20,000 nucleotides of DNA from an uncultured virus (IMG/VR IMGVR_UViG_3300033571_018919) (lineage: Duplodnaviria; Heunggongvirae; Uroviricota; Caudoviricetes), in the IMG/VR virus record IMGVR_UViG_3300033571_018919, positions 107,169-127,168 of that record. One strand, written 5' to 3'. The position numbers and the translations under genes are program-made. Below are positions 6,137 to 20,000 of this stretch, piece by piece. A model generated the notes under the pieces. The model saw only the letters and a list, made by a program, of their open reading frames with translations, was not told where the DNA came from and made no database searches. Position 1 is the first letter of the stretch. Every line of letters starts with the position of its first letter.

Positions 6137-7053
6137 AATATTGATCTTATTTGAGCATGGTCAATCGACATTTCGTGATATTTATTGTCATTATAAAACT
6201 TTAAATTTTTGACAGTTACATTATCACCTAAGATATCTTTATTCCACATCAATTTGCATAGATGATTTGGTATATACCAATCTCCAACATTATTGTGGTA
6301 ATCTAAAAGAGTTTGATCAATTATTAATTTACCTAATACATATCTACCTAATGATAGTTTGTTTAAGTCATGCAATGGGATATTAAATTTGCACTGTTTT
6401 GCCCACCGGTAAAAGAAAATTTCACTAGCCTTTGGAAAATTATATTCGGGTTTAAAAAATAACAAAGTTTCTGAACTAATTGTATTTTGGGCTGCTAACT
6501 CTGTATAATCATCATCGTCCGTAGACAAGTCTAACCAATCTTTGCCTAAAGTGCCGTAACCTAAAATTAAATCGCCCCACTTATTATTAGATTCTAGCCA
6601 TATTTTATATTCTTCTTTTATGGGTATGTATTGTTCACTATTTGCAGAATAGAATACTATATTCGAATTGTATTCAGAATATTTACTGTTAATCTTATTT
6701 TCTAAAACATGTATTAATTTATTCAATGTAGATAATGTATCGTCATTGGATTCGTTAGTTAATTTGACTAGTAAACTATGCGTTTTATTTAAATCAGTTT
6801 TGGTAAAATTTTTAGGAATCTCTTTAATATTAATTGTTGTACAGATGTCATTTGCTAATCTTAATACCTTGTCAGTTGGCGTATTCATTTGAATACCTGT
6901 ATTATATTCACTAGTTTCTAATTGTATCTGTTGCCATATATGCTGTACAGGATTATCAATGAGTTGATAATTCAATTTTAGATCACCTACACGACAACTT
7001 ATAGTTATTTCTAAGGTGTTGTAACCTTCTATATTTTGAAAAATCTCTTTCAT
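6133..7053 (-). CDS. Hypothetical protein
   Basis: 306-aa ORF with 4-nt start/stop overlaps with both neighbours; no recognised motif. Confidence 0.75.
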   Translation of the reverse strand: MKEIFQNIEGYNTLEITISCRVGDLKLNYQLIDNPVQHIWQQIQLETSEYNTGIQMNTPTDKVLRLANDICTTINIKEIPKNFTKTDLNKTHSLLVKLTNESNDDTLSTLNKLIHVLENKINSKYSEYNSNIVFYSANSEQYIPIKEEYKIWLESNNKWGDLILGYGTLGKDWLDLSTDDDDYTELAAQNTISSETLLFFKPEYNFPKASEIFFYRWAKQCKFNIPLHDLNKLSLGRYVLGKLIIDQTLLDYHNNVGDWYIPNHLCKLMWNKDILGDNVTVKNLKFYNDNKYHEMSIDHAQIRSIL

Positions 7054-8312
7054 ATGTAATCCTTAAATTCCGGAGTCACCTCTAAAAAACTCTGTTTTCT
7101 AGTATTATCCAATCGCATATTGAAATTAATTGTATCTACCCAAAGATGGCTCTCATCTTTTGCTGTTAGAAAGTTCAAAACGCCATTTATTTGATTTAAT
7201 GTCAACTCATATAACATCGGGTGTTTTTTAACCATTTTAAAATCTTGCAGTCTTTCAGATACAAGTTTAAGTTTAGAACTAGCAATGTTTTTTAATTGCT
7301 CAGGTAATACTTGTATACTTAAACAATTTGGATATCTAACCATATTAGTATAGAAAACAATTTCTAACTCATCTAAGAAATACTCAATCATTTCGTCTAA
7401 TATTAATATGTTAGATATTTGAACAGCTACAGCTCCTACTATTCGATTAATATTAGTAATACTTTGAACTTCTTTAATATTCTTAATTAATATATCCCAC
7501 TCAGCATTACCTCGAATGTATTCATAAGAATCTTTCATGCCATCTATACTGACATTTAATGCAACGCTTTTAAAATAAGGCCAATATTCATATATATTAC
7601 GATTTCCCTTACCTAACATTGTTAAATTTGTGGCGTATTTAATTTCAATTTGATGTCCATATGGTTTGAGCATATTTAATATGCGATAATGCTGCGGATC
7701 CATCAAAGGTTCACCTCCTGCAAACTCTACTCGCCTAAAGTATGGTAAATTTTTTTCTAAGCTAGACCACCAATTGGGATTGTCTTCAAATTTATCTAAT
7801 AGCGGCTTGTTTTCTAAATTATGATCTTCCACTAATTGATATATAACTTTACCGGATTCTTTATAAAAGTCTTTAATTTCTGCCCAGTCATTCCAGCTAG
7901 TGCTATCGCCGGGATGACACATCCTGCATTTTAAATTACATAGATTATTCAGCTTTAATTCCATAGTAGGAATTTTAAAAGGCATGGTCATTGTCGGATG
8001 AAGATCATCAAATGCATTTGGGTAAAGTTTTATACGGGCTTCTGGTATCTCACCCTTAATATGTCGTTGACGTAAACTTTCTACACCTTGGTCTTCTAAG
8101 CTGAAGCAAGGTTCGCATTCTGGTGGACGTTCTCCGGACAAAACTTGAGAACGTATTCTTCTCATCGTATGGTTATTCCATATTTCTTCTAAAGTATTAT
8201 CCTGTATATTACCAATTGGATGACTGCGGCAACACACTTGTATGGCGCCATCTTCTCTTGTTGCTAATCCGGTAAAAGGATGCATACAAAATGTTTTACT
8301 ATTACATTGCAT
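7050..8312 (-). CDS. Radical SAM protein with N-terminal Twitch/SPASM-like domain
   Basis: 420 aa; CMHPF...DGAIQVCC...CEPC, then CNLKCRMC and FAGGEP; paralogue of 3111-4505. Confidence 0.9.
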   Translation of the reverse strand: MQCNSKTFCMHPFTGLATREDGAIQVCCRSHPIGNIQDNTLEEIWNNHTMRRIRSQVLSGERPPECEPCFSLEDQGVESLRQRHIKGEIPEARIKLYPNAFDDLHPTMTMPFKIPTMELKLNNLCNLKCRMCHPGDSTSWNDWAEIKDFYKESGKVIYQLVEDHNLENKPLLDKFEDNPNWWSSLEKNLPYFRRVEFAGGEPLMDPQHYRILNMLKPYGHQIEIKYATNLTMLGKGNRNIYEYWPYFKSVALNVSIDGMKDSYEYIRGNAEWDILIKNIKEVQSITNINRIVGAVAVQISNILILDEMIEYFLDELEIVFYTNMVRYPNCLSIQVLPEQLKNIASSKLKLVSERLQDFKMVKKHPMLYELTLNQINGVLNFLTAKDESHLWVDTINFNMRLDNTRKQSFLEVTPEFKDYI

Positions 8313-9036
8313 TACTTATAGCCCAATTTCTTTCTTTACACCAAAAACATATATCACATGTAGGTACATGTTGATTAGGTATGTATGTTTCATAAGTTAT
8401 CCCTTCAAATTCACCCTCGCAACTTCTTGTTATAGAAAATAAGTCTAATAAGTTTCTTTTTCTATATTGTTGAATTACCCAATGTTTCTCAATAAATCTA
8501 AATGGGTGTATGGCATATACATTCATGTGCTTCATTAAACGCAGGTGTTGATTAAATTCAGTAGGATCAATATCTCTTTCTTTCATCCCATCAAAGTTTT
8601 TATTTTTTGGATTTCTCGTAACACCATTATAGTAAGCACTAATTTTATTGTGATAACAAACATATTCACTATACGCACGTATTTGAATATTATCTCCGCT
8701 TACTTTTTTACCATATTCGTCCATAAGCACAGGACCAGTTGCACCATATTCAATATCCGGTGCAATAAAATTTACGTGTCTAGTCCATTCGAACGTTGGA
8801 AACTTCTTTGTTAAGTATTCATATACATTTTTTGAATCATATTCTTGCCATGGTCTAGTTTTCCACATACGAATATGACTTATGATATGAATTTTCAGAT
8901 TAGGGTTTTCATTTACTGCAAGTGAACATAATAGATATGCTAATAGCGCCGAATCGGCACCACCACTTAAACTGACAGCGATACTAGGCCATTCTTTATC
9001 ATAGGGTATGTTAACGCCGTCTATGTTATATTCCAT
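8302..9036 (-). CDS. QueC-like PP-loop ATPase (7-cyano-7-deazaguanine synthase-like fold)
   Basis: 244 aa; SLSGGADS PP-loop; C-terminal TRSC...CDICFWCKER Zn-binding motif. Confidence 0.75.
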   Translation of the reverse strand: MEYNIDGVNIPYDKEWPSIAVSLSGGADSALLAYLLCSLAVNENPNLKIHIISHIRMWKTRPWQEYDSKNVYEYLTKKFPTFEWTRHVNFIAPDIEYGATGPVLMDEYGKKVSGDNIQIRAYSEYVCYHNKISAYYNGVTRNPKNKNFDGMKERDIDPTEFNQHLRLMKHMNVYAIHPFRFIEKHWVIQQYRKRNLLDLFSITRSCEGEFEGITYETYIPNQHVPTCDICFWCKERNWAISNAM

Positions 9037-9880
9037 TTTCTTCTAAATAACGAATTAAAGGTGAAACACCGACTGGCATGCCATTTTTTAATGCTAAATA
9101 AATGCTTTTTGTTTCAGTTAAATTAAAGTCCTTGCAAATTGTCTTATATCTATGTTCATGAGTATTCCAAAGGTAATCAGGTACTAGCTCATCTAAAAAA
9201 TATGAACCAATCATTACTAATGCCTTATTATTCATATGGAAATCGTTCATTATTGTAATACTATCGCTATCTTCATTTGACCATCGTAAACCTATTCTGT
9301 TCCAACCTAACCCTAATCCTTTACTTAAACTAATACCCACCGATTTAATATTTGGGTGATTAAAATCAAATTCTATGTCAGTACATGTTGTAACCCATGC
9401 TCCGTCGATATGTACATCAATTTTTTTCTCTGCACACTCACTGAGTATATCCTGCATATTATTATGTATAGATCCTATTTGTGGAAATGGCATAGCGATA
9501 ATTAAAGGCACACCATGTATTAAATTTTTTGGGGTAACAAGGTATGATAAGTTTAATCTACTGTGGTATCTGTAGTCATCAACTAGTGTTTGTACCCGAT
9601 GGTGCATATAAATGTTATCGATAAATTGAGTGCATCCGTTAATAATATCTATACGGTTAAATTTTTTCAATCCATATAACGAATTACGTTTAGATTCTGA
9701 TAACCAATTTACAAATCGAAACTTAAATCTATTATAAACCTCATTACTAATGTCTTTGTCCAAACATCCATGCAACACTTGTTGTATTAGAGTGTCAATT
9801 TTTTTATCTGTAAGTGGTTGTGGTCTTTCTATTTCTAAATACTTACTATCATAATCGGGTGCAATTTTAATTCTATCCAC
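9026..9880 (-). CDS. PLP-dependent enzyme (fold type I, aminotransferase-like)
   Basis: 284 aa, GTG start; VHIDGAW (PLP Asp) and SLSKGLGLGWNRIG (Schiff-base Lys followed by RxG). Confidence 0.7.
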   Translation of the reverse strand: MDRIKIAPDYDSKYLEIERPQPLTDKKIDTLIQQVLHGCLDKDISNEVYNRFKFRFVNWLSESKRNSLYGLKKFNRIDIINGCTQFIDNIYMHHRVQTLVDDYRYHSRLNLSYLVTPKNLIHGVPLIIAMPFPQIGSIHNNMQDILSECAEKKIDVHIDGAWVTTCTDIEFDFNHPNIKSVGISLSKGLGLGWNRIGLRWSNEDSDSITIMNDFHMNNKALVMIGSYFLDELVPDYLWNTHEHRYKTICKDFNLTETKSIYLALKNGMPVGVSPLIRYLEENGI

Positions 9881-9884
9881 TGAC

Positions 9885-9899
9885 TATTTACTATAAATA
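9885..9899. promoter_or_regulatory. Back-to-back T4-type late promoter motifs
   Basis: Exact TATAAATA at 9892-9899 (+), 4 nt before ATG 9904; TAAATA on - strand at 9885-9890, 4 nt before GTG 9880. Confidence 0.7.
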
Positions 9900-9903
9900 T
9901 TTC

Positions 9904-10572
9904 ATGCTTTCAAAATTGACTCTTTCTGTAGACGTAGATAGTTTAGTAAAACAAGTTAGTGAACTTAATTTTGGTAAAAGTTTATCCATTAATTATACCA
10001 CAGGAAAATTACTTAATGGTCCTTATCTAACGAAACCCGAATTTCTAAATACTCCTTTAGGAAATATTTTACAATCTATTGAAAATGTAGGTGAAGCTAG
10101 ATTATTAAAACTAGAAAGTGGAGAATCTTATACTGCACATTCTGACCCAGATGATAGAATACATGTTCCTATCATAACCAATCTATATTCTTATATTATG
10201 GATTTGGACAACAATAAAATGTATCATTTGCCTGCTGATGGATCAGTGTGGTATATGGACACAAGTGTTACACATGTGGCAGCAAACTTTGGAGGTAGAA
10301 CTAGAATACATTTAAACATTCGAGTGCTACTTCCTAAATTTAAATCCCCTGGCTACAAATTAACTGTTACAGGAGGCGATTATGATTGGAAACAGGAAGC
10401 ATATTTTACCTTAATGACTTTTTTTAATAAATCTATTAAAGAAAGAATTATTACAGGATTTGAAAAGGTAAACGAAAGAGAAGTTTTATTAAATTGTGAT
10501 CCAATCGTGCTTAATCCTTACATAAAAAAATTAGAAGATAAAGGGTTTAGTATATCTTTAAGCGCCACATAA
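9904..10572 (+). CDS. 2OG-Fe(II) oxygenase, Asp/Asn beta-hydroxylase-like, with C-terminal extension
   Basis: 222 aa; YTAHSDPDDRIHVPI (HxD), distal His in THVAANFG, RIHL. Confidence 0.8.
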   Translation: MLSKLTLSVDVDSLVKQVSELNFGKSLSINYTTGKLLNGPYLTKPEFLNTPLGNILQSIENVGEARLLKLESGESYTAHSDPDDRIHVPIITNLYSYIMDLDNNKMYHLPADGSVWYMDTSVTHVAANFGGRTRIHLNIRVLLPKFKSPGYKLTVTGGDYDWKQEAYFTLMTFFNKSIKERIITGFEKVNEREVLLNCDPIVLNPYIKKLEDKGFSISLSAT

Positions 10573-11622
10573 ATGACTTTCTACAATTCTGATTTAAAAA
10601 TTTTAGATATTGAGCCATCTTCTTTTTGTAATGCAAAATGTCCTCAATGCATGAGAGAATCACAAAATGGTTCCTATGATTTTTTTAATCAAGTGAATTT
10701 AACTGATACTTTTTTTGAGATTTTTTTTCCTAAACAAGTAGTAATAAATTTAGAAATAGTTTCATTTAGTGGAAATGTGGGGGAACCTACAATGAATAAA
10801 CATTTGATTGATATTATCAGGTGGTTTAGAAAACAAAACCCTAAAATTTATGTAGAAGTATACACGAACGGCAGCGTACAGAAACCAAAGTTTTGGAGCG
10901 AATTAGGAGAAGTTATTGGACATAATGGTAATGTGATATTTGCCATCGATGGACTAGAGGATACTAATCATATATACCGTATTGGAGTTAAATGGAACCT
11001 GCTAATGCAAAATGCAAAAGCATATATAGAATCTGGAGCGAAGGCAACATGGCAGTTTATACCTTTTCTACACAACGAGCATCAAGTTGAGTTAGCTAAA
11101 CAATTAAGTGCAGAAATGGGATTCGATAAATTTAAAATTAAAATATCACATAGAGATTTATTAAATCAACAGCAAAATGAAAAAACTAGAGTCTATCCAC
11201 CAAAAAATCCTATGTATACACATAGCGGAAATAAACTAGATTTTACTAATCTTGATGTTACTGAAAACTATTTAAATAGTCTAGATATTAAATGTTATGC
11301 CATAGAAAATAGTAACTTATATATTTCTGCTGAAGGTTTAGTGTTCCCTTGTTGTCACACGGCTAGCATTATACTTTTAGATGATAATATGGTACCTGAA
11401 CCGTATAGTTGGATTAGGAAAACAAAAAGTCAATTTAATCTTAATGAAATTAATTTACATAACAATACTCTAGAACAAATTTTAAAATCAGTTACCTTTA
11501 ATGAAATTAAAGAGTCATGGAACAAAGACATTAGCGTAGGAAAAAATGCAATATGTGCAGCGATTTGCGGCAAATGTAAAAATAACAAAAGTCTTATAGA
11601 AAATCTATTGCACCATGAATAA
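10573..11622 (+). CDS. Radical SAM protein with C-terminal Twitch domain
   Basis: 349 aa; CNAKCPQC, GNVGEP, TNG; C-terminal C...EGLVFPCC...CAAICG. Confidence 0.9.
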   Translation: MTFYNSDLKILDIEPSSFCNAKCPQCMRESQNGSYDFFNQVNLTDTFFEIFFPKQVVINLEIVSFSGNVGEPTMNKHLIDIIRWFRKQNPKIYVEVYTNGSVQKPKFWSELGEVIGHNGNVIFAIDGLEDTNHIYRIGVKWNLLMQNAKAYIESGAKATWQFIPFLHNEHQVELAKQLSAEMGFDKFKIKISHRDLLNQQQNEKTRVYPPKNPMYTHSGNKLDFTNLDVTENYLNSLDIKCYAIENSNLYISAEGLVFPCCHTASIILLDDNMVPEPYSWIRKTKSQFNLNEINLHNNTLEQILKSVTFNEIKESWNKDISVGKNAICAAICGKCKNNKSLIENLLHHE

Positions 11623-12553
11623 ACTAATAAAAATAGAAATAGCTAATCCTAATGCATTGCGTATTAATTTTGTAATGACACGTAGTTGCACCTACGAATG
11701 TAGATATTGTCCGGATGATCTACATTACGGTACACATAGAGATATAAACTTAAATGATTTAAAACTGTTTCTTAGTAGATTTACGGATAGAAATACGGCC
11801 GTTCAATTGACAGGTGGTGAATGCACTACTCATCCACAATTTGAGGAAGTTATAAAATTAATTAAAGACTTTAATTATAATGTACTAGTGGATTCTAACA
11901 GTGTTAGGACATTGCGCTTCTACGATGAAGTAAAACATTTAGTAGATAATTGGTGCATAACATTACATCCTAGTCAACATAAATTAGATTTAGAAAAATT
12001 AAAATTATTATCACAACATTCTTTTCTAGTGATTTATGTTATGATGGATCCTAATTATTGGGAGATATCATTAGACTGGTTTGATCAAATATCAAAATTA
12101 AAAGATTTAAAAGTAACACCAATCCGAGTTATGAACAATTGGGGAGGTGCAAATTTTCACGCTAATTACAGTGACGAACAATTAGAGTATTTGTCAAAGG
12201 CAGAATCTAAATGGCTTTTTACTGTTGAACGAGAAACAGAATTAAGAAAAACTCACATGTGGTTAGCGGATACAGAATCTATAGCAACAGACACTACTGG
12301 AAACAGGGTTACACTAGATCCATTTAAAATGATACGCACAGGCACAAACAATTTTTATGGTTGGCAGTGTAAAGCCGGTAATGAATCAATATGCATATTT
12401 GATGACGGCAAAGCCATATGGGCAAATTGTGGGATTAAAAAATTTAACCATTACTTAGAGTTGACTCCTGAAATAATGGCTGAACCACTGAAATGTAATT
12501 TTTTAGCTTGTTCATGTGCTACTGATATTCGAGCCTCTAAGTCAAAGAATTAG
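11615..12553 (+). CDS. Radical SAM protein with C-terminal Twitch domain
   Basis: 312 aa; CTYECRYC, LTGGE; C-terminal CKAG...ANC...CNFLACSC. Confidence 0.9.
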   Translation: MNKLIKIEIANPNALRINFVMTRSCTYECRYCPDDLHYGTHRDINLNDLKLFLSRFTDRNTAVQLTGGECTTHPQFEEVIKLIKDFNYNVLVDSNSVRTLRFYDEVKHLVDNWCITLHPSQHKLDLEKLKLLSQHSFLVIYVMMDPNYWEISLDWFDQISKLKDLKVTPIRVMNNWGGANFHANYSDEQLEYLSKAESKWLFTVERETELRKTHMWLADTESIATDTTGNRVTLDPFKMIRTGTNNFYGWQCKAGNESICIFDDGKAIWANCGIKKFNHYLELTPEIMAEPLKCNFLACSCATDIRASKSKN

Positions 12554-13622
12554 TTTCTATCCACTGATCATTGGGTTGACTTATATCTACATTTTTAAAT
12601 TCACCGCATACTCTGGCACAGGTAATTAATTTTTCTTCATTCCATTTTTTGTGCCAAATATTTTGCCAAATTTCAGAATCAATCACATTTTTTATTCCGT
12701 TTAGTGCATTAAGTTTTTCTACACCACCAAAATCTTCAATTAGTTTAGTGTATTGATTTTTTATATCTTCGCTTACATTATGATTGATATATTCAGGATC
12801 ATAGTATGTATAGGGTATGGAACTTACCCAACAACAAGGAAGTATGGTTTTGTATGCGTCAATGTAGATTTCTTTAAGATTTAAAACATGGCAGTTAATT
12901 TTTGCCTCAGCTATAAGTTGTTTATAAGAATTAATTACCTCTTTTGGCATAAACTTAATAGTAGTTTCAGTTGGGGGTTCAATTGTATGTGTATAGTTTC
13001 CTTCTTTATCTACAACATCGTATTTTGGTTCTACTAAAAAGCGTGAACTATTTTTTACAACAAATTTTGAGAAACCTAAACTTTTGGCTACTACCCTACA
13101 TTCTTCTGTTTGATGCTCATTGTGTTTAAATTTTATAAATGTCCATTCGGCGATTCCCCCTGCATCAATAAAAGCTTTTGCATTTTTTATTACAGTATTG
13201 TAATTAGTGCCTATCCTATATAATGAATGCGTATCAACTAATCCGTCAAGTGCGAAATGAACACAGTGATCTACAGGAAGTGCCTTAGCTAAATCTATCC
13301 ACCATGACGGCTTTCTAGCTCCGCCATTGGTGTGTATGGCAATTCGTACATTTGGATTCACATGTTTGATGTACACACACATTTCTATTAGGTCATCATG
13401 CAGCATAGGATCACCAAAATTGCCGCAAAAATATATACATCGGACTAAGTTTAAAATTTCAGGAGAGATGATCTTTTTAAACTCAATTAGTGTCCACTGA
13501 GTTAATTTTAAATATGGATTAGGCAACCCACCGTGATGATTTCTGGCACACATGGGGCACCTTGCCTGACAATTATTAGTTAGCTCTATGTGAATAGATT
13601 TTAATTCATTAAATTTAAACAT
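12537..13622 (-). CDS. Radical SAM protein with C-terminal Twitch domain
   Basis: 361 aa; CQARCPMC, GNFGDP, HTNG; C-terminal C...LPCC...CARVCG; paralogue of 10573-11622. Confidence 0.9.
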   Translation of the reverse strand: MFKFNELKSIHIELTNNCQARCPMCARNHHGGLPNPYLKLTQWTLIEFKKIISPEILNLVRCIYFCGNFGDPMLHDDLIEMCVYIKHVNPNVRIAIHTNGGARKPSWWIDLAKALPVDHCVHFALDGLVDTHSLYRIGTNYNTVIKNAKAFIDAGGIAEWTFIKFKHNEHQTEECRVVAKSLGFSKFVVKNSSRFLVEPKYDVVDKEGNYTHTIEPPTETTIKFMPKEVINSYKQLIAEAKINCHVLNLKEIYIDAYKTILPCCWVSSIPYTYYDPEYINHNVSEDIKNQYTKLIEDFGGVEKLNALNGIKNVIDSEIWQNIWHKKWNEEKLITCARVCGEFKNVDISQPNDQWIETNSLT

Positions 13623-14235
13623 TCGCCTTTCCTATAATCATGTATCTGTCATACAATGGCAATTCAAGTTTTTTTGCATTATAAACATGTAGTTTGCATT
13701 GATCTATAAAATGAGTTAAACTATTGGCAATTCGTATGTGTTCATCAATTTTGTAATTATTACTTTGTACTACAATCAAACTATTGTGCGGTAAACAAGT
13801 TAACCATGTATCATATTGTTCTTGTGTAATGTGTTCACAACTAGTGTTGATAATAATATCTGCATTACTGTGAATTGCACACATATCCGATGTAATTGCT
13901 GTAAATCTTCCTTGCATTTCTTCTTTTTTATTCATAGTTCTAGCTATTTCTTCACAACTAGGATCTATATCGATGGTACGAATATACTTAATAGAAATTT
14001 TACTTTGAAAAAGAAAACTAGCAAGAGTGCCGACCCACCCGCCGTGTATGTCAATACTGACAGGAAAATTTAAACTTTTATCTTGTTCTGAACTGATAAA
14101 ACTTTCTAAAGTTTCAATTAACCACTCTTTGCTTTGTATCTGTCCTCGCCAAAAGGCGTCTAGTGTACGTTTGGGGTCTTTGCTCTCACGAATGGCACAC
14201 ATCCAATAATGCAAGTGTTCAGTGTCTATATTCAT
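13615..14235 (-). CDS. Class I SAM-dependent methyltransferase-like protein
   Basis: IHGGWVG glycine-rich motif I, IRTIDID motif II, IINTSCEH; ATG at 14235 preferred over the TTG at 14241. Confidence 0.7.
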   Translation of the reverse strand: MNIDTEHLHYWMCAIRESKDPKRTLDAFWRGQIQSKEWLIETLESFISSEQDKSLNFPVSIDIHGGWVGTLASFLFQSKISIKYIRTIDIDPSCEEIARTMNKKEEMQGRFTAITSDMCAIHSNADIIINTSCEHITQEQYDTWLTCLPHNSLIVVQSNNYKIDEHIRIANSLTHFIDQCKLHVYNAKKLELPLYDRYMIIGKANV

Positions 14236-14241
14236 GTTCAA

Positions 14242-15255
14242 CTATTCTGTTAACTTGCATTTTGGTATTTTGCTATCTGCCGAACTCACACAGCTAGGGG
14301 TTATACACTTTTTTGGCGAGCCAAATAATTTAAAACCATCAGTTAATGTTCCTAATGGTTGGTCGTGGCAACTATAACTTCTTTTAATTTCATCTCCCCG
14401 TATTATAACACTTTGATACCCTGAATTGCAATACCAACCTTTAAAATTATTAAAACCAAAAGAATTAAATCTTTCTGCTTGGTCAAACAAGTACTCATTG
14501 TTGTCTTGGTCATACAAGCTTATTTGATATATTTCTTGCTCCTTTGCCTTTTGGGGGAACCCATTTTGCATTATTGCAATCATTTCGTTTGTGTATCCAT
14601 CTACAATTGCACTGGCGGTGTCGTTACTCTGTGGCTTTAGTGTGACATTGATTCCTTTATCATGAAATCTATTACACCTATCATACAACTCATAAAATTG
14701 ATCTGGTACCATAACTTGATTAATGGTTACGTGAACATTTTCTCCCATTAAGAATAAACATTTTTCTGCAAATTCATTTTCATTCGCAAACTCACTATGA
14801 TAACTTGCAGTAATTGATTTGCGTTGAAATAGTTCAGTAGACATGCACCAATTTCCCCACCATTTTTTGCTTGGACTTAAATTAGTAGTCATGTGTATAC
14901 TTTGGTATGGGGTGATACCATCTTCAAGGTATTTTAATAAAGATAATAAATGTTTATAAGCAGTTGGTTCTCCGCCACTAAAGGACCAATGAAATTTATT
15001 AAATCTATTTTGCCTTGCTTGAGTTTTTATTGAATCTATTGTTTGAATGTATTTTTGAAAATCCGAATAGTCAGGCGTTTGGCTATTAGCATAAGGCCAA
15101 CAATAGCTGCACTTATAATTACAGAACCTACCAAGAATCCAACTAATATTAAAGACATCATCTTTTATTAAAGTTTGTTGACCAAATTTTACTATTTTCT
15201 CAAATGGAATTTTTGTAAAATCGATCATACTGTTCTTTGAGCCAGTCGTAGTCAT
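14242..15255 (-). CDS. Radical SAM protein with C-terminal Twitch-like domain
   Basis: CNYKCSYC, FSGGEP; C-terminal CNSG...YSC...CITPSCVS; true start may be the ATG at 15228 (MIDFTKIPF). Confidence 0.9.
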   Translation of the reverse strand: MTTTGSKNSMIDFTKIPFEKIVKFGQQTLIKDDVFNISWILGRFCNYKCSYCWPYANSQTPDYSDFQKYIQTIDSIKTQARQNRFNKFHWSFSGGEPTAYKHLLSLLKYLEDGITPYQSIHMTTNLSPSKKWWGNWCMSTELFQRKSITASYHSEFANENEFAEKCLFLMGENVHVTINQVMVPDQFYELYDRCNRFHDKGINVTLKPQSNDTASAIVDGYTNEMIAIMQNGFPQKAKEQEIYQISLYDQDNNEYLFDQAERFNSFGFNNFKGWYCNSGYQSVIIRGDEIKRSYSCHDQPLGTLTDGFKLFGSPKKCITPSCVSSADSKIPKCKLTE

Positions 15256-16801
15256 TTATCCTTTTTAATACTTCTGTATCATTCTTGTTAGCCATCGCAA
15301 ATTCTTTGCCTGCAATAGCTCCGTCAATTGCAAATTCGCCGTACTTCTTATCTTTGCCTACTGTACACCAAACGTTTAATCTGTCGTTAGTTTCAATTGA
15401 GTTTTGTCTATCAATTATTTGACTTGCTAACTTTACGCATTCTCTAAATGCACTTCGCCATGTATTGAATGGATCCGTATTAAAATTAGTATAATTACTT
15501 AGTTTAATTACAGGTTCGTATAAATTACTTATACTTGTAGTCATATCAGGTTTATTAGTTTGCATATGTAACGTGTAGAATCTGGGTAATAGCTTTACAC
15601 CACCGTACCCATATATTAACCCATTAATTGGATTAACGCTGCGCCAAACTCTAACTTTGGCTTGTTCATAAAAAGGTACACTAAAATCAAAAGAAAAATC
15701 ATCAACTAATGATGCATCGGCATCTACTACCCAAAAATAATCTGTTTTTGCAATCTTAGCAGCAGCAATGTGTGCTTGATGTATCCCTGCTATGCCGTCA
15801 ATTCTTTTTGCTTTTGGATATTTTTTAAGTACTAGTTCAAAATTTTTTTCAGCGTTTGGTTCACCGTAGCTTATGAATATTACGTCAAATTCACCTGGGT
15901 ATTTGTATTTTATAAATGTTTCAGGACTTCTTCTGCTTACAGGAATTTCTTCTTTGTATTCTTTGCTAGCATTTGGTTGAAATACATCTACAATTCTTCC
16001 ATCATTTGTTATAGAACTTAACGATCTACCTAATCGATTACATTCAAACAATATATCATCTTTATATAATTCATACTGAGCTTCAAATAGGTTATCTAAA
16101 TGTTCAAAATCTTTGATATCCCCTATATTAAAATTTTGTTTTGACAATGCGATATATGCTGCCTGCCTGGCGCCCAATATAGCCCAAACTCCATTTTCAA
16201 CGTCTGTGCCTAAATGCATCCATCTCCAAAGTCTTTCATAATTTCTCCAGTTGATTTCTGAAATTTCTTTTACGAATATATCATTTTCCATACATAGTTT
16301 GATGCCTTCCCTAAACCCACTTCTCCAAGCTTGCTTTGGACTTGAATTTATGTTTACATCACTTAAACTACGATTTAATTGTAGATAATTTTTAAAATCA
16401 AAATCAACACTATTAGGATTGGAGCTGTTTTCATGGGTACGCATAGTTTTCAGTTTTTCTACTGGCCAAACTTTGATACCACCGTTACCATACGTATTTC
16501 CATTAATGTTGTTTTTACCACTAAAGCTTATTACACTGTCGGATACGTTTACGGTATCGACTAGATTCAGTTCAATTTGCAATAAATTATCGTGTACGTA
16601 GTTATCACCATCAACAATAATAACGTGACTATGATTTTCAACAAGATTTGCAACAGCTTTGTGTGCAGTGTCGCTTCCCTTTATATTGTCAACACGCAGT
16701 GCATTTGGACAAATTTCTAGTAAGCGTAAGTAATTGGCTTCTTTGTTTTCCTCTTGATAACTTAGAAAAACGACTGGATAATTTTGAATTTTGAATAGCA
16801 T
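15200..16801 (-). CDS. Tandem-duplicated GT-A (GT2-like) glycosyltransferase-like protein
   Basis: 533 aa; two homologous halves, each with FxSYxE, a DxD motif (IIVDGDN / WVVDADA), NGxxYGxGGxK and WRSxFRExxKL. Confidence 0.65.
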   Translation of the reverse strand: MLFKIQNYPVVFLSYQEENKEANYLRLLEICPNALRVDNIKGSDTAHKAVANLVENHSHVIIVDGDNYVHDNLLQIELNLVDTVNVSDSVISFSGKNNINGNTYGNGGIKVWPVEKLKTMRTHENSSNPNSVDFDFKNYLQLNRSLSDVNINSSPKQAWRSGFREGIKLCMENDIFVKEISEINWRNYERLWRWMHLGTDVENGVWAILGARQAAYIALSKQNFNIGDIKDFEHLDNLFEAQYELYKDDILFECNRLGRSLSSITNDGRIVDVFQPNASKEYKEEIPVSRRSPETFIKYKYPGEFDVIFISYGEPNAEKNFELVLKKYPKAKRIDGIAGIHQAHIAAAKIAKTDYFWVVDADASLVDDFSFDFSVPFYEQAKVRVWRSVNPINGLIYGYGGVKLLPRFYTLHMQTNKPDMTTSISNLYEPVIKLSNYTNFNTDPFNTWRSAFRECVKLASQIIDRQNSIETNDRLNVWCTVGKDKKYGEFAIDGAIAGKEFAMANKNDTEVLKRINDYDWLKEQYDRFYKNSI

Positions 16802-16806
16802 GACAA

Positions 16807-16813
16807 TATTTAT
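16807..16813 (-). promoter_or_regulatory. T4-type late promoter motif for the glycosyltransferase operon
   Basis: ATAAATA on - strand, 5 nt upstream of ATG 16801. Confidence 0.55.
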
Positions 16814-16837
16814 TAGAAAAAACGGGCAAATAAGTAT

Positions 16838-16866
16838 TTGACTATATAGATATCTTATTGTACAAT
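16838..16866 (+). promoter_or_regulatory. Sigma70-type promoter upstream of the leader ORF / tRNA array
   Basis: TTGACT-17 nt-TACAAT. Confidence 0.65.
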
Positions 16867-16923
16867 GTGTACATTGAAAATGCGTAAAAAAGCTAGATAA
16901 TTTAAGCTTTTATTATGCCAGGA

Positions 16924-16930
16924 CTAAATA
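16924..16930 (+). promoter_or_regulatory. T4-type late promoter motif for the leader ORF
   Basis: CTAAATA 8 nt upstream of ATG 16939. Confidence 0.5.
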
Positions 16931-16938
16931 ACTTTACT

Positions 16939-17079
16939 ATGATGAACTTTACTTGTAAAAATACGATGCTGCATGAAGGGCTATGGTCAGTTTTAGCCAT
17001 AGAGTCTTTTGCGCCTGTATATCCAACAAGTATCCGTGGCACAAATGATAATCAAAGCGGCTACCGGGGAACGGAATAA
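16939..17079 (+). CDS. 46-aa putative leader (attenuator) peptide MMNFTCKNTMLHEGLWSVLAIESFAPVYPTSIRGTNDNQSGYRGTE
   Basis: Manually translated ORF between promoter motifs and an intrinsic terminator; contains all 20 amino acids and 37 distinct codons. Confidence 0.6.
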   Translation: MMNFTCKNTMLHEGLWSVLAIESFAPVYPTSIRGTNDNQSGYRGTE

Positions 17080-17106
17080 ACAAGTAACATTATAAAAGTT
17101 TATACG

Positions 17107-17139
17107 AACCCTGGAAATTTAAAATCTCCAGGGTTTTTT
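17107..17139 (+). terminator. Rho-independent terminator (candidate attenuator)
   Basis: AACCCTGGA / TCCAGGGTT 9-bp stem followed by a T-tract. Confidence 0.85.
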
Positions 17140-17158
17140 GTTGCAGGAATACAACACT

Positions 17159-17317
17159 ATGATTGACAAAATAACAGAAAATGATATAAAATTCGGTTCG
17201 CTTGATAACAAAAAGTGGTATGAAGAACATGTGTTATCAAAAGAACAACTAGATTTGTTAATAAAAAACAAATTTGATAGGTATAAAAATTATCAAATAG
17301 ACAAGGTTGATTGCTAA
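17159..17317 (+). CDS. 52-aa hypothetical protein (MIDKITENDIKFGSLDNKKWYEEHVLSKEQLDLLIKNKFDRYKNYQIDKVDC)
   Basis: Manual translation; AGGA RBS-like sequence ~10 nt upstream. Confidence 0.45.
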   Translation: MIDKITENDIKFGSLDNKKWYEEHVLSKEQLDLLIKNKFDRYKNYQIDKVDC

Positions 17318-17327
17318 TTTTTATACA

Positions 17328-17574
17328 AGTGTTTAGAGAGAACGAGGCTCTTAGGTTCACTATAAAAAATCTTTAACGGGCGGACAGTATACATGAAGTA
17401 TATGGCGAAAACATATATAGTAAGACTACTGGTTGGAACGTCGATTCTAACATAATGCGAGATAACTCGCATTATTCTAAAGCATACTCAGTGATATAGG
17501 GTACAGTCGGGATGCCGTAATGGATCCTTTTAGATGAGCGGTTCAACTCCGTTAATAGTATGTTTCAGAATAAT
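17328..17574 (+). ncRNA. Putative structured non-coding RNA with tRNA-like T-arm
   Basis: Consecutive hairpins (17328-17361, 17385-17431, 17432-17451, 17452-17475) and an 18-bp stem 17471-17488/17557-17574 enclosing AGCGG-TTCAACT-CCGTT. Confidence 0.45.
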
Positions 17575-17583
17575 AATTACAAT

Positions 17584-17659
17584 TGGGGATTCGCCAAGTT
17601 GGTAAGGCACCGGATTTTGATTCCGGCATTCGGTGGTTCGAGTCCATCATCCCCAGCCA
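17584..17659 (+). tRNA. tRNA-Gln(TTG)
   Basis: Cloverleaf; anticodon arm CCGGA-TTTTGAT-TCCGG; GGTTCGAGTCC; encoded CCA. Confidence 0.95.
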
Positions 17660-17661
17660 TT

Positions 17662-17738
17662 GCCCCAATAACTCAGTGGACTAGAGTACTGTGCTACGAA
17701 CGCAGGAGTCGGAGGTTCGAATCCTTCTTGGGGTACCA
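17662..17738 (+). tRNA. tRNA-Arg(ACG)
   Basis: Anticodon arm CTGTG-CTACGAA-CGCAG; GGTTCGAATCC; CCA. Confidence 0.95.
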
Positions 17739-17744
17739 TTCTTG

Positions 17745-17773
17745 TTGACTAAATACGTTTGCTTGTTTAATAT
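17745..17773 (+). promoter_or_regulatory. Putative promoter of pqqA
   Basis: TTGACT-17 nt-TAATAT, with an overlapping CTAAATA late-type motif at 17749-17755. Confidence 0.5.
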
Positions 17774-17798
17774 GAGCGTTCTTATACAGGAGGTAAAC

Positions 17799-17870
17799 AT
17801 GTGGACTAAACCTACAGCACAGGATATGCGTTTTGGTTTTGAAATCACTATGTATATTGCAAATCGCTAA
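17799..17870 (+). CDS. pqqA: Pyrroloquinoline quinone precursor peptide PqqA (MWTKPTAQDMRFGFEITMYIANR)
   Basis: 23-aa ORF matching the PqqA consensus (W-x-x-P...R-x-G-x-E-x-T-x-Y; ExxxY core); AGGAGG RBS at 17788-17793; terminator downstream. Confidence 0.93.
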   Translation: MWTKPTAQDMRFGFEITMYIANR

Positions 17871-17888
17871 TATACAACATTGATGGGC

Positions 17889-17915
17889 AAAAAGGTAGCT
17901 ATGCTACCTTTTTTT
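17889..17915 (+). terminator. Rho-independent terminator after pqqA
   Basis: AAAAAGGTAGC-TAT-GCTACCTTTTTTT. Confidence 0.8.
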
Positions 17916-17917
17916 AC

Positions 17918-17993
17918 GGTAGAGTAGCATAGCGGCTAATGCGCCACCTTCATACGGTGTTTATCGTCAGTTCGAGTCTGACCTCTACTACCA
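17918..17993 (+). tRNA. tRNA with CAT anticodon (elongator Met or Ile2/lysidine)
   Basis: Acceptor GGTAGAG/CTCTACT, anticodon loop TTCATAC, TTCGAGT T-loop, CCA; lacks initiator GGG/CCC anticodon stem. Confidence 0.88.
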
Positions 17994-18007
17994 ATAAAGG
18001 AAATATT

Positions 18008-18160
18008 ATGCCAATGTATGAAACTACTGTTAGAACGCCGAGCGGCGAAGAAAAGAAAAGAATTTATGCGGATACACCGCAAGAGGCTAAAAAACTTTTT
18101 GAACAATTGTATGGTGGGCCTAGAGCAGTTCCATATATACCAAAAATAGTACCAAGTTAG
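18008..18160 (+). CDS. 50-aa hypothetical protein (MPMYETTVRTPSGEEKKRIYADTPQEAKKLFEQLYGGPRAVPYIPKIVPS)
   Basis: AAAGGA RBS just upstream of ATG 18008; fills the gap between two tRNAs; the track's longer start (17939) lies inside a tRNA. Confidence 0.7.
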   Translation: MPMYETTVRTPSGEEKKRIYADTPQEAKKLFEQLYGGPRAVPYIPKIVPS

Positions 18161-18233
18161 GGGGATTAGTTAAATGGGATAACAACGGCTTTGCAAGCCG
18201 TGATTAACAGTTCGATTCTGTTATCCTCCACCA
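18160..18233 (+). tRNA. tRNA-Ala(TGC)
   Basis: Anticodon arm ACGGC-TTTGCAA-GCCGT; G3:U70 Ala identity pair; CCA. Confidence 0.93.
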
Positions 18234-18244
18234 AAACATTCAAT

Positions 18245-18321
18245 GGTGATGGTAGCTCAGTTGGTAGAGTCCCGGATTGTGATTCCGGTCGTCGTGGGTT
18301 CGAGCCCCATCCTTCACCCCA
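18245..18321 (+). tRNA. tRNA-His(GTG)
   Basis: Anticodon arm CCGGA-TTGTGAT-TCCGG; encoded G-1:C73; CCA. Confidence 0.95.
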
Positions 18322-18324
18322 AAT

Positions 18325-18402
18325 ACCCTGATGGCGAAATTGGTAGACGCACCAGTTTAAGGTACTGGATTGTTGAGAGTTCGAGTCTCTCTCAGGGCAC
18401 CA
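18325..18402 (+). tRNA. tRNA-Leu(AAG), short variable loop
   Basis: Leu-type D arm GGCGAAATTGGTAGACGC; anticodon arm CCAGT-TTAAGGT-ACTGG; A1:C72 mismatch; CCA. Confidence 0.8.
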
Positions 18403-18404
18403 AT

Positions 18405-18480
18405 GCCGTTCAAGCTAACCAAGTGGAAGCGTCTGTCTGAAGAACAGAATGGCCTGGAGCGTTACCAGGGGTCGGCACCA
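18405..18480 (+). tRNA. Atypical tRNA-Phe(GAA)
   Basis: Anticodon arm TCTGT-CTGAAGA-ACAGA; T-stem CCTGG/CCAGG with non-canonical loop AGCGTTA; ACCA end. Confidence 0.75.
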
Positions 18481-18484
18481 ATTT

Positions 18485-18513
18485 TTGACAAATATTAAAT
18501 TATTTGTTATACT
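18485..18513 (+). promoter_or_regulatory. Sigma70-type promoter (extended -10)
   Basis: TTGACA-17 nt-TATACT with TGn; ends 4 nt before tRNA-Arg(CCG). Confidence 0.75.
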
Positions 18514-18517
18514 TGAT

Positions 18518-18592
18518 GAGTCCTTAGTCTAATGGATAAGATACTGCATTCCGATTGCATTGATGCAGGTTCGATTCCTGCAGGACTTACCA
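18518..18592 (+). tRNA. tRNA-Arg(CCG)
   Basis: Acceptor GAGTCCT/AGGACTT; anticodon loop TTCCGAT; D-loop GGATA (A20 Arg determinant); CCA. Confidence 0.88.
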
Positions 18593-18624
18593 AAAGTAAA
18601 TACTATTTTATATAGGAGATTAAA

Positions 18625-19185
18625 ATGTCTGTCTTAGCTTTGGATATCACAGGAATCCCTAGACAATGGGTTTCAAACGATATTGCAATCACTTACCATG
18701 CAAAAGAGATGGTAGCATGGAGTATTGGTGAAATTGTTGCACGTTATCGTGGTGGCATTCAAAATAATGGCAAAATGAGTTATCTTGAAACTCCTAGTAT
18801 TATTGCCATTAAAGGACATGGTTTTGATCCTAGCAAACATGGCAAAGTTGCACTTACTAATAAAACATTGTTTGGGCGTGACCGTCATGTATGTGCATAC
18901 TGCGGCGGACATTTTTCGAATTCAAACAACTTAAGTCGTGACCATATTTTACCTAAAAGCAGAGGTGGTGCAAACAATTGGATGAATGTGGTTACTGCAT
19001 GTACTCCATGCAATAACAAGAAAGACAACAAAACATTGAAAGAGGCACGAATGGAATTGCTTTATGTTCCCTATGAGCCAAATTTCTTTGAAGCAATGAT
19101 TTTGCAAAATAGAAATATTCTCGCTGATCAAATGGAATACTTAATGACAGGTGTACCAAAACATAGCAGAATTTTGTTATCATAA
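18625..19185 (+). CDS. HNH endonuclease (McrA/HNH_5-like)
   Basis: RDRHVCAYCG, SRDHILPKSRGG, NVVTACTPCNNKK; AGGAG RBS. Confidence 0.9.
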   Translation: MSVLALDITGIPRQWVSNDIAITYHAKEMVAWSIGEIVARYRGGIQNNGKMSYLETPSIIAIKGHGFDPSKHGKVALTNKTLFGRDRHVCAYCGGHFSNSNNLSRDHILPKSRGGANNWMNVVTACTPCNNKKDNKTLKEARMELLYVPYEPNFFEAMILQNRNILADQMEYLMTGVPKHSRILLS

Positions 19186-19193
19186 TAAAAACA

Positions 19194-19222
19194 TTGACAT
19201 AAAATGTTTTGTGTGATATGAT
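19194..19222 (+). promoter_or_regulatory. Sigma70-type promoter (extended -10)
   Basis: TTGACA-17 nt-TATGAT with TGn. Confidence 0.75.
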
Positions 19223-19241
19223 TGCGTTTAAATAGTTTTAT

Positions 19242-19316
19242 GCTGGCGTGGCTCAACGGTAGAGCAACGGATTTGTAATCCGTAGGTTGAGGGTTCGATT
19301 CCTTTCGCCAGCACCA
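19242..19316 (+). tRNA. tRNA-Thr(TGT)
   Basis: Anticodon arm ACGGA-TTTGTAA-TCCGT; CCA. Confidence 0.95.
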
Positions 19317-19322
19317 TTTTAT

Positions 19323-19398
19323 TGTCTAGTAGCTCAGTCGGTAGAGCAGGTGACTGTTAATCACCCTGTCGTAGGTTCGATCCCTACCTAGACAGCCA
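19323..19398 (+). tRNA. tRNA-Asn(GTT)
   Basis: Anticodon arm GGTGA-CTGTTAA-TCACC; G73; CCA. Confidence 0.95.
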
Positions 19399-19422
19399 AA
19401 CTTCTTGTATTATAGGTATATT

Positions 19423-19617
19423 ATGTTAGTTACTGAAGCACAAGGTTACAAACTTTTCTGTGAAACACAAAAAATTGATTTCCCGCCGGACACCTATTAT
19501 GTTCGTATTTTTACCAAATATGAATTTGCTAAGAACTCTGATGCGGAGCAAACTAAGATTGAACTTTTTCTAACTAAAAGTGAATTAGACAATCTTAGAC
19601 AAATGCTTACTGTCTAA
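19423..19617 (+). CDS. 64-aa hypothetical protein
   Basis: ATG at 19423 preceded by AGGT; fills the gap between tRNA-Asn and tRNA-Arg. Confidence 0.6.
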   Translation: MLVTEAQGYKLFCETQKIDFPPDTYYVRIFTKYEFAKNSDAEQTKIELFLTKSELDNLRQMLTV

Positions 19618-19624
19618 TTAATTT

Positions 19625-19699
19625 CTGGCGTTCGTATAAGGGATAATACTACAGACTTCTAATCTGTAAATCCAGGTTCGAGTCCTGGACGCCGGACCA
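19625..19699 (+). tRNA. tRNA-Arg(TCT)
   Basis: Anticodon arm ACAGA-CTTCTAA-TCTGT; GGTTCGAGTCC; CCA. Confidence 0.92.
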
Positions 19700-19728
19700 A
19701 ATTATCAAACTAGCAACAAAAATAATTG

Positions 19729-19757
19729 TTGACGATAAATCCTATTTGATGTATAAT
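19729..19757 (+). promoter_or_regulatory. Sigma70-type promoter
   Basis: TTGACG-17 nt-TATAAT. Confidence 0.75.
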
Positions 19758-19774
19758 TCTTTTTATCGTAGTTA

Positions 19775-19788
19775 ATATCTTTAACAAT
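19775..19788 (+). promoter_or_regulatory. boxA-like antitermination element
   Basis: ATATCTTTAACAAT resembles rrn boxA (TGCTCTTTAACA), located between a promoter and tRNA-Glu. Confidence 0.45.
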
Positions 19789-19802
19789 TTAATAACATTT
19801 AG

Positions 19803-19878
19803 GCACCCATCGTCTAGAGGCCTAGGACATTGCCCTTTCAAGGCAGTAACACGGGTTCGAATCCCGTTGGGTGTACCA
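19803..19878 (+). tRNA. tRNA-Glu(TTC)
   Basis: Anticodon arm TTGCC-CTTTCAA-GGCAG; GGTTCGAATCC; CCA. Confidence 0.95.
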
Positions 19879-19938
19879 GTTAATGGTATAACTAACTGTG
19901 ATACAAGCACAATATGCTTGGTAGATTATACCATACTT

Positions 19939-20000
19939 GCCCACTTAGCTCATTCGGTTAGAGCATCGTCTTGATAAGGCGGGGGTGCTTGGTTCGATTC
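19939..20000 (+). tRNA. tRNA-Ile(GAT), truncated by window end
   Basis: D arm GCTC/GAGC, anticodon arm TCGTC-TTGATAA-GGCGG, GGTTCGATTC at the edge. Confidence 0.88.

Follow-up and report, generated by a model that had tools for sequence, protein, structure and literature searches.

The tRNA genes carried by phages are usually explained by codon usage, by the decay of host tRNAs or by escape from defences that cleave tRNAs; to our knowledge, the way in which these genes are regulated has been little studied. This question is raised by a stretch of 20,000 nucleotides (nt), hereafter the window, which forms the last 20 kb of a 127-kb virus contig (35% G+C; IMG/VR record IMGVR_UViG_3300033571_018919, positions 107,169 to 127,168, an uncultured member of the Caudoviricetes). 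Upstream of a tRNA array, the window carries a short open reading frame (ORF), here called pepA, which is preceded by a promoter, followed by an intrinsic terminator and specifies all 20 amino acids in 46 codons. What would such a leader be for? Comparison with its relatives makes it, in our judgement, rather probable that the element works as an attenuator of transcription that is coupled to translation and samples every amino acid, so that transcription probably runs on whenever ribosomes read any of its codons slowly.

The leader unit and its relatives

On the plus strand, the order of features is promoter P1, a hairpin in the 5' untranslated region (5' UTR), the motif AGGACTAAATA, pepA, the terminator, a second small gene (pepB), promoter P2, a non-coding element and the first tRNA (Table 1). 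The same stretch is present, identical, in a 221-kb IMG/VR contig (G001) that CheckV rates as 61% complete, so its source is a giant phage; the DNA sequencing runs that contain parts of it are for the most part lake-water metagenomes.

Relatives were reached through 31 loci with a homologue of the neighbouring 533-amino-acid (aa) gene; tRNAs lie on the same side of this gene in 4 of them, and reading these loci revealed the same module. Two DNA patterns, one for the downstream non-coding element and one for the 5' UTR, matched at least 117 and at least 119 stretches in viral contigs, and at least 154 copies of the module, at least 98 of them unique, were taken from 267 loci; all family counts given here rest on the matches listed. 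The patterns constrain the peptide only at codon 1 and the first base of codon 2. One relative, L107, in which a deletion fuses the leader to the downstream RNA and leaves a 70-aa frame, was dropped from all peptide counts. The module is linked to tRNA genes: of the 61 copies whose flank reaches 700 nt or more, 50 are followed by a tRNA on the same strand about 275-750 nt downstream, and a covariance-model search found one copy of the module in each of the genome records G000 and G001. The copies fall into two subfamilies, the first (the type of the window) with short peptides and a conserved G/C-rich box in the last codons, the second with longer peptides that end in ...GSFIEGAGYA or similar.

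At the sensitivity of blastn, the window region and a typical relative both lacked any DNA match among cultured phages, and a tblastn search with the leader peptide returned a single match at chance level (E = 1). When the window (16000-20000) and eight relatives were compared with Rfam, only tRNAs passed the gathering score. Two contigs of metagenome-assembled genomes, labelled Hyphomonadaceae and Neisseriaceae, carry the 5' motif, and may be phage contigs mis-binned into those genomes.

Terminator and antiterminator

The terminator stem pairs 17107-17115 with 17127-17135 and is followed by a T tract that reaches 17139. When the segment 17040-17120 is folded, the minimum-energy structure is a different hairpin, in which CCGGGG (17064-69) pairs with CCCUGG (17109-14), CG (17072-73) with CG (17105-06) and AUAAAC (17076-81) with GUUUAU (17098-103); its energy of -14.4 kcal/mol was equalled by 2 of 200 shuffled sequences. 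The terminator and this alternative hairpin, a candidate antiterminator, had both been proposed in the initial annotation of the window, and every coordinate and pair given there is correct.

The alternative pairing is a property of the family. In 67 non-redundant copies, the last 45-60 nt of the ORF and the spacer behind it were searched for the segment that pairs best with the terminator 5' arm; the energy of this duplex came to between -12.8 and -22.5 kcal/mol in subfamily 1 (38 copies) and between -19.1 and -28.2 kcal/mol in subfamily 2 (29 copies); the terminators of the 67 copies range from -12.4 to -23.7 kcal/mol. In most copies, the antiterminator duplex was matched by 0-3 of 200 shuffles.

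Covarying pairs in both structures across relatives had been suggested as a check, and both are kept, with compensatory changes. For subfamily 2, RNAalifold recovers the antiterminator from a plain MAFFT alignment of transcripts cut before the 3' arm: 92.8% of cells pair, versus 28-61% with slid partners, and one of its pairs occurs as UA in 19 sequences, as CG in 4 and as UG in 2. For subfamily 1, a covariance model was made from 18 in-register sequences and 40 sources were realigned to it (alignment A6, 41 rows, one of which is a reverse-strand match of L260). In A6, whose fitting biases it in favour of the modelled structure, 94.1% of cells pair in the antiterminator, changes on both sides occur in 9 of 13 pairs, and 0 of 500 shuffles reach any of five measures. 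The terminator pairs in 96.8% of cells of the same alignment and shares columns 74-80 with the antiterminator; the two structures are thus both conserved, yet mutually exclusive.

A third pairing lies in the full-length transcript, where the spacer behind the stop codon can pair with the region of the start codon. In the window this duplex reaches -15.1 kcal/mol, and none of 200 shuffles was as good; it is significant in 19 of the 67 copies, all of subfamily 1, and absent in subfamily 2.

Coding and RNA-level constraints in the leader

The ORF was found as initially described, at 16939-17079, with 46 codons of 37 kinds and all 20 amino acids. Its frame is open in 98 of 98 unique copies, with lengths of 39-59 aa (L107 excepted), and the alignment gaps within it are multiples of three. 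Entropy at codon positions 1, 2 and 3 is 0.95, 0.85 and 1.12 (20 sequences), the third positions being the most variable, and the motif SIRG is the same in 67 of 93 unique ORFs, with synonymous codons that differ among copies (AGT/AGC, ATT/ATC, CGC/CGT, GGN). The open frame, the triplet gaps and the synonymous variation argue that the ORF is coding. Other parts are fixed as nucleotides, which argues for constraint on the RNA too: the box CCCGGGG is used in two reading frames, and one copy with a frameshift at its end retains the same bases. By these measures, the leader ORF is under coding constraint plus RNA-level constraints.

A hairpin in the middle of the ORF, followed by a U run, belongs to the same picture. 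RNAalifold retains three of its pairs with covariation (38 relatives), the Phe codon within the U run is invariant in 20 relatives, and the hairpin and U run together may be a pause signal for RNA polymerase. No Shine-Dalgarno sequence lies at the usual spacing before pepA, as is also the case for 50 of the 84 long ORFs of this phage. No named homologue of pepA was found, and no Pfam family.

Could the unit be a structured small RNA that acts in trans, with a reading frame that is incidental or secondary? It has its own promoter and terminator and folds better than shuffled sequences (z = -3.46; 1 of 200 shuffles as good), and the mid-ORF hairpin, the U run and the box are all nucleotide-level constraints within the ORF. 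A frame open in every unique copy, gaps in threes and synonymous variation at kept residues speak against such an RNA, and so do the lack of an Rfam match and a composition signal, described below, that is present at the peptide level only; we consider this explanation very improbable.

P1 had been placed at 16838-16866 in the initial annotation and is borne out as TTGACT-17-TACAAT, with a predicted transcript start at about 16873; relatives carry a -10-like hexamer at the matching distance, about 60 nt 5' of a TAAATA motif. A second promoter motif claimed at 16924-16930 belongs to the kept 5'-UTR motif AGGACTAAATA, and a promoter role for it is unsupported: as this motif occurs once in the 127-kb contig, we rejected a use of it as promoter throughout the phage. 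It could serve as a standby site or as a Shine-Dalgarno sequence at a distance. At the site of the 5'-UTR hairpin, relatives have other stems in the same place, judged by eye only.

Contigs of relatives were present in two metatranscriptome libraries of one study, which may contain DNA; these contigs cover 16896-17067 and 17179/17203-17378/82.

Completeness of the amino acid set

The full set of amino acids is present in 78 of 85 unique peptides, and each of the remaining seven is without exactly one (Val in three, Asp in two, Cys in two). The chance of a full set in random proteome windows rises from 0.3% for a length of 39 aa to 4.5% for 58 aa, and about 1-2% of the 46-codon windows in the long ORFs of this phage hold all 20. 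Among representatives below 60%, 50% and 40% pairwise identity, the set is complete in 22 of 26, 13 of 16 and 8 of 9. For a stricter null, residues were shuffled within alignment columns, so that the make-up of each column was preserved; this permutation expects 18.1 +/- 3.4 complete peptides of 85, and 3.7 of 26, 1.7 of 16 and 1.4 of 9, and in 5,000 permutations the observed counts were never reached. As a control of similar size from the same loci, pepB has all 20 amino acids in 0 of 44 sequences, with a mean of 17.1 kinds. The loss of diversity in homologues had been named beforehand as a result that would speak against a sensing leader; the all-20 content is instead kept through the turnover of the sequence.

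Rare residues also move. Once its usual position is gone, Cys is found at other places in 10 groups versus 2 losses (P = 0.0018), and His in 7 versus 0 (P = 0.0099). For Trp by itself, relocation is non-significant (4 versus 0 losses; P = 0.14), and over ten amino acids Fisher's test gives just P = 0.038. No single amino acid is enriched: the mean copy number per amino acid is 1.0-4.9, and Ala, at 3.4 per peptide of about 49 residues, is as frequent as in the proteome (0.069). In each of the 67 copies the set is complete 5' of the antiterminator strand, by a median of 3.3 codons; for single sequences this early completeness is non-significant (mean share of equally early shuffles, 0.21).

At the codon level, the initial annotation had claimed an excess of diversity over the 32-33 codons expected under uniform use, for which arithmetic gives 32.5. 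Numerically the leader is above every null: 46-codon windows of the phage's own long ORFs contain 26.1 +/- 2.9 distinct codons, and 37 was reached in 0 of 20,000; redrawing the synonymous codons of the window peptide gives 30.5 +/- 2.0 (P = 0.0006); and the family averages 36.6 distinct codons versus 31.4 expected, with P <= 0.05 in 69 of 85 under a null that uses the codon usage of this phage only. The meaning of this excess is ambiguous, because G/C-rich RNA stems could produce it. We regard completeness at the amino acid level, measured on the aligned peptides, as firm.

A different use of the leader would be a specific arrest of the nascent peptide at SIRG, induced by a small molecule or factor as in TnaC, SpeFL or SecM, with the all-20 content secondary. 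The amino acids of SIRG are kept despite synonymous changes, and the motif lies about 8-10 codons 5' of the antiterminator strand, where an arrested ribosome would leave that strand free; it may also bear a loose likeness to the arrest motif of SecM. Such an arrest leaves the relocation of Cys, His and Trp and the permutation result unaccounted for. SIRG is moreover absent or altered in divergent relatives, among them L078, L057 and L181, whose switch and full amino acid set are intact, and none of the tools used matched a known arrest motif, so that we think this explanation quite unlikely. The kept peptide motifs nevertheless suggest a further role of the peptide, beyond the sampling of codons proposed here.

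Proposed mechanism

Classical ribosome-mediated attenuation is, on this evidence, the most likely mechanism. Host RNA polymerase would start at P1 and make a leader of about 270 nt that contains the 46-codon ORF, whose last codons and stop codon would serve as the antiterminator 5' strand, its partner being the 5' arm of the terminator. A ribosome that moves at normal speed would be at or near the stop codon in time to cover this strand, the terminator would fold and the transcript would end at about 17139. A ribosome that lags or stalls at any upstream codon would allow the antiterminator to form first, and transcription would proceed into pepB; read-through would then continue into the structured RNA and the first tRNA block, adding to the output of P2.

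Since all 20 amino acids are placed 5' of the antiterminator strand, the switch would respond to shortage or damage of any aminoacyl-tRNA, and would be a general gauge of decoding capacity, not a sensor of a single amino acid. We infer that the ORF is translated and that slow decoding is the condition that opens the switch; the relevant signal could be host tRNA loss, an anticodon-nuclease defence, starvation or the supply of phage tRNAs. The initial annotation had proposed this model of a ribosome at the stop codon. It suits subfamily 1, where the antiterminator 5' strand takes in the last codons together with the stop, so that a ribosome at the stop would cover it, and does not carry over simply to subfamily 2, whose geometry differs.

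Table 1. Positions of the leader unit and of the features around it in the window.
Feature	Positions	Strand	Description
Promoter P1	16838-16866	+	Sigma-70 type, TTGACT-17-TACAAT; 10/12 consensus matches
5'-UTR hairpin	16882-16918	+	In the minimum-energy and centroid fold of 16873-17145
5'-UTR motif AGGACTAAATA	16920-16930	+	Kept in relatives; unpaired in the fold
Leader ORF pepA	16939-17079	+	46 codons and TAA; all 20 amino acids, 37 distinct codons
Mid-ORF hairpin and U run	16981-17010	+	CTATGG/CCATAG, then U run 17007-17010; terminator-like in promoter/terminator scan
Antiterminator 5' strand	17064-17081	+	CCGGGG box, CG, ATAAAC; includes stop codon 17077-17079
Spacer after stop codon	17079-17101	+	Can pair with start-codon region 16929-16957; minimum-energy fold
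Antiterminator 3' strand	17098-17114	+	17109-17114 doubles as terminator 5' arm
Intrinsic terminator	17107-17139	+	9 + 2 bp stem, then six U; -15.2 kcal/mol; covariation
pepB	17159-17317	+	52-aa conserved protein; ORF with homologues in relatives
Promoter P2	17163-17192	+	TTGACA-18-TAAAAT; kept at nucleotide level whatever the pepB frame
Conserved structured element	17328-17583	+	Between pepB and first tRNA; AACGAG-loop hairpin, ACGGGCGGAC motif
tRNA array start	17584-20000	+	11 complete tRNAs and a twelfth truncated where the window stops

Genes and promoters behind the terminator

The leader had been described as lying directly upstream of the tRNA array. The first tRNA begins at 17584, 445 nt past the terminator, and the interval holds the 52-aa ORF pepB, the consensus-like promoter P2 and a kept structured element. 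The predicted fold of pepB consists of two helices, with a mean predicted local distance difference test score (pLDDT) of 78; the protein has no Pfam family and no Atlas neighbour. The family consensus of P2 is TTGACA-17-TAGAAT. The start codon of pepB sits within the P2 spacer or 5' of the -35 box, in the window 5' of it. It is therefore missing from P2 transcripts, so that translation of pepB requires a transcript that reads through the terminator.

This arrangement bears on the simplest alternative, that pepA is an ordinary stand-alone gene for a small protein: the peptide would be its product, the pairing would tune mRNA stability or translation, and the terminator would insulate P2. Such a gene would fit a peptide conserved with synonymous changes, a promoter of its own, a strong terminator with a separate kept promoter directly behind it, and a start codon that pairs with the spacer behind the stop in the full-length fold, as in a closed, stable RNA. 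It would leave unexplained why the competitor of the terminator arm persists whatever the reading frame, as CCCGGGG does, the frameshifted copy included, and why the pairs change in compensation. Nor would it be expected that rare residues relocate instead of holding fixed structural positions; pepB would have no route of translation other than read-through, and the peptide has no homologue with a name or a Pfam family. On balance, we find it unlikely that pepA is only such a gene.

Control of the whole array by the switch, as first proposed, is not upheld, since P2 and promoters within the array bypass it; pepB and read-through would be gated instead. From the arrangement of these signals we predict that the switch gates pepB directly and at most adds to the transcription of the first tRNA block. 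In the window, the ribosome-binding region of pepB, its start codon and P2 overlap at 17140-17200 (-35 box, ATG, then -10 box), and this overlap suggests that read-through transcription and the firing of P2 interact. Relatives without pepB, such as L152, have an inverted repeat around the -35 box of P2. In L107 and in DNA contigs of runs X1 and X2, the terminator or leader is joined straight to the conserved RNA, skipping pepB and P2; the joints in such relatives are 17139 to 17378 and 17139 to 17418.

The structured element, of which 51 non-redundant copies were extracted, has no Rfam match. The stem below its AACGAG loop differs among relatives, and further stems have apparent compensatory changes; it may represent a novel non-coding RNA, or else a leader of the array that undergoes processing.

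The array of G001 comprises 27 tRNAs in 7 kb, for 19 amino acids; tRNA-Phe was not found among these 27, though the leader always carries Phe. These tRNAs suggest another input for the same mechanism, the phage's own tRNA supply, which would make the switch a negative feedback, with read-through high early in infection and then shut as phage tRNAs speed ribosomes through the leader; damage to host tRNAs would not be what it detects. The array covers 19 of the 20 leader amino acids, 31 of the 37 leader codons are readable by the 27 phage tRNAs (by standard wobble rules, our own reckoning), and each genome record has one copy of the module, at the head of the array. Such feedback sits poorly with a leader that prefers G/C-ending codons, as the genes of the phage and its tRNAs, mostly with U34, favour A-ending ones; it also leaves Phe in the leader without a tRNA-Phe, and P2 and the internal promoters would bypass it. 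We therefore hold feedback from the phage's own tRNAs to be improbable as the main input.

Several further genes were seen around the unit. Within the array, a tRNA-Leu with the uncommon anticodon AAG lies at 18325-18402, an HNH endonuclease gene at 18625-19185, and small ORFs of 73 aa (17939-18160) and 70 aa (19405-19617), neither with a family match, between tRNAs; three tRNAs with the anticodon CAT occur in the array (L268; G001 180000-189000). Upstream, seven radical S-adenosylmethionine (SAM) genes occupy 12 kb on both strands (3111-15255), and the 533-aa gene at 15200-16801 has weak glycosyltransferase-like matches; its product has 34% identity to a protein of Ralstonia phage RsoM2USA, in which no tRNA array stands beside the gene. 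A role of the leader as precursor of a ribosomally synthesized and post-translationally modified peptide for the radical-SAM genes was set aside, as tRNAs are near just 4 of the 31 loci of the 533-aa gene and the module is with arrays in 50 of 61.

Evidence against a decoding sensor

A number of observations weigh against a translation-coupled attenuator at the head of the array. The antiterminator of the window belongs to the weakest in the set, with a duplex of -13.6 kcal/mol that 6 of 200 shuffles matched, slightly weaker than its own terminator, and some copies have a poor U tract (UUUCC) behind the hairpin. In an unfitted alignment of subfamily 1 (plain MAFFT, truncated), RNAalifold found 0 consensus pairs, because sub-groups differ by one linker base and the columns are out of register; the alignment that restores the register, A6, carries the bias named above. 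In subfamily 2, the ORF extends 12-21 nt (in one copy -1) past the end of the box strand, and the stop codon lies about 10-14 codons past the start of the box, so that a terminating ribosome would leave most of the strand uncovered. This geometry does not fit simply, and the direction of the response is possibly different there. Kept peptide motifs such as SIRG are unexplained by a pure sampler of codons, and the excess of codon diversity tracks G/C-ending codons, which RNA stems favour too.

The promoters count on the same side. P2, sought as TT[GT]AC[AG]-N16-18-TAnnnT within 110 nt past the terminator, is present in 55 of 74 copies, and the array itself contains promoters with 11 of 12 consensus matches at 18485-18513, 19194-19222 and 19729-19757, two of them with an extended -10 TG. 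The array is apparently transcribed in several blocks, and with P2 and three internal promoters it cannot depend on read-through alone. No RNA contig of the two metatranscriptome libraries spans the terminator (17082-17165), though contigs are silent on RNA ends and this proves nothing.

Set against these points, the covariation of two exclusive structures, the coding constraint and the completeness of the set lead us to keep the translation-coupled attenuator as the preferred explanation. We believe the finding to be real: the unit is conserved and unusual, and would bring a new sensing logic and a new setting to a known kind of regulator. More tentatively, and as a possibility that we would not yet call probable, the pangram leader of this giant freshwater phage clade, kept complete by selection, may audit the whole pool of aminoacyl-tRNAs, so that a missing, cleaved or uncharged tRNA would yield pepB, as a small effector, and more transcripts of the near-complete phage tRNA set, in a circuit of counter-defence and self-repair of translation.

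If true, tRNA genes would for the first time be known to be under the control of an attenuator; the leader would carry classical attenuation beyond the feedback of a single pathway to a decoding sensor for the whole pool, give direct access to the question of when tRNAs of their own are needed by phages, and offer a compact, portable part for reporting translation stress. The proposal makes a sharp prediction: each of the 20 single-amino-acid drop-outs should open the switch, and if a codon present once is deleted, the response to its amino acid alone should be lost.

Comparison with known systems

Attenuators of the trp type (trpL, hisL, pheL, thrL, leuL, ilv) combine a leader ORF, a terminator and an exclusive antiterminator at the end of the ORF, and the position of the ribosome picks the fold. 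The phage element resembles these enterobacterial leaders in its short ORF, its terminator between the ORF and the downstream genes, its exclusive antiterminator, with the 5' strand in subfamily 1 at the end of the ORF, and, possibly, its pause hairpin. Unlike them, it has no run of a single amino acid that could serve as control codons, every amino acid being present mostly 1-5 times; the leader is longer, at 39-59 codons; and what follows it, in a phage, is a gene for a small protein, then a structured RNA and tRNAs, not biosynthetic enzymes. Full-text searches of the literature yielded no account of an attenuator or a leader peptide for the tRNA genes of phages.

The initial annotation knew of no description of a general tRNA-integrity sensor. 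The principle of an upstream ORF (uORF) attenuator that senses translation is already published for whiB7 of mycobacteria, where the element is described as sensing general translation stress (bioRxiv 10.1101/2023.06.02.543512). According to this preprint, efficient translation of the uORF leads to a rho-independent terminator and stalling to an antiterminator; the response to Trp starvation is much reduced in a uORF without its Trp codons, and the corresponding response is abolished in one without His; and the uORF is specifically enriched in Ala, with variable amino acid content, several amino acids being missing from the uORF of M. tuberculosis (bioRxiv 10.1101/2023.06.02.543512). The phage leader shares with whiB7 a uORF of diverse composition, a terminator and an antiterminator, and in whiB7 composition sets which shortages are sensed. 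It differs in that it is not enriched in Ala, in that completeness itself is kept, and in that pepB and tRNAs of a phage lie downstream in place of a bacterial transcription factor. The phage element would thus work like the whiB7 attenuator without being a member of it, a comparison of function in which no sequence relationship emerged, none having been sought.

Two further systems offer leads. In E. coli, the regulatory uORF toiL, which precedes topAI-yjhQ, is reported to signal the stalling of ribosomes by a variety of causes and not by one amino acid (PMC12121999), and is named here as a lead. In Sinorhizobium meliloti, the terminated leader RNA rnTrpL and the leader peptide peTrpL have functions of their own (PMC6614838, PMC7298713), and comparable roles in trans could, by analogy, explain both the kept peptide motifs of the phage leader and the closed fold of its terminated RNA.

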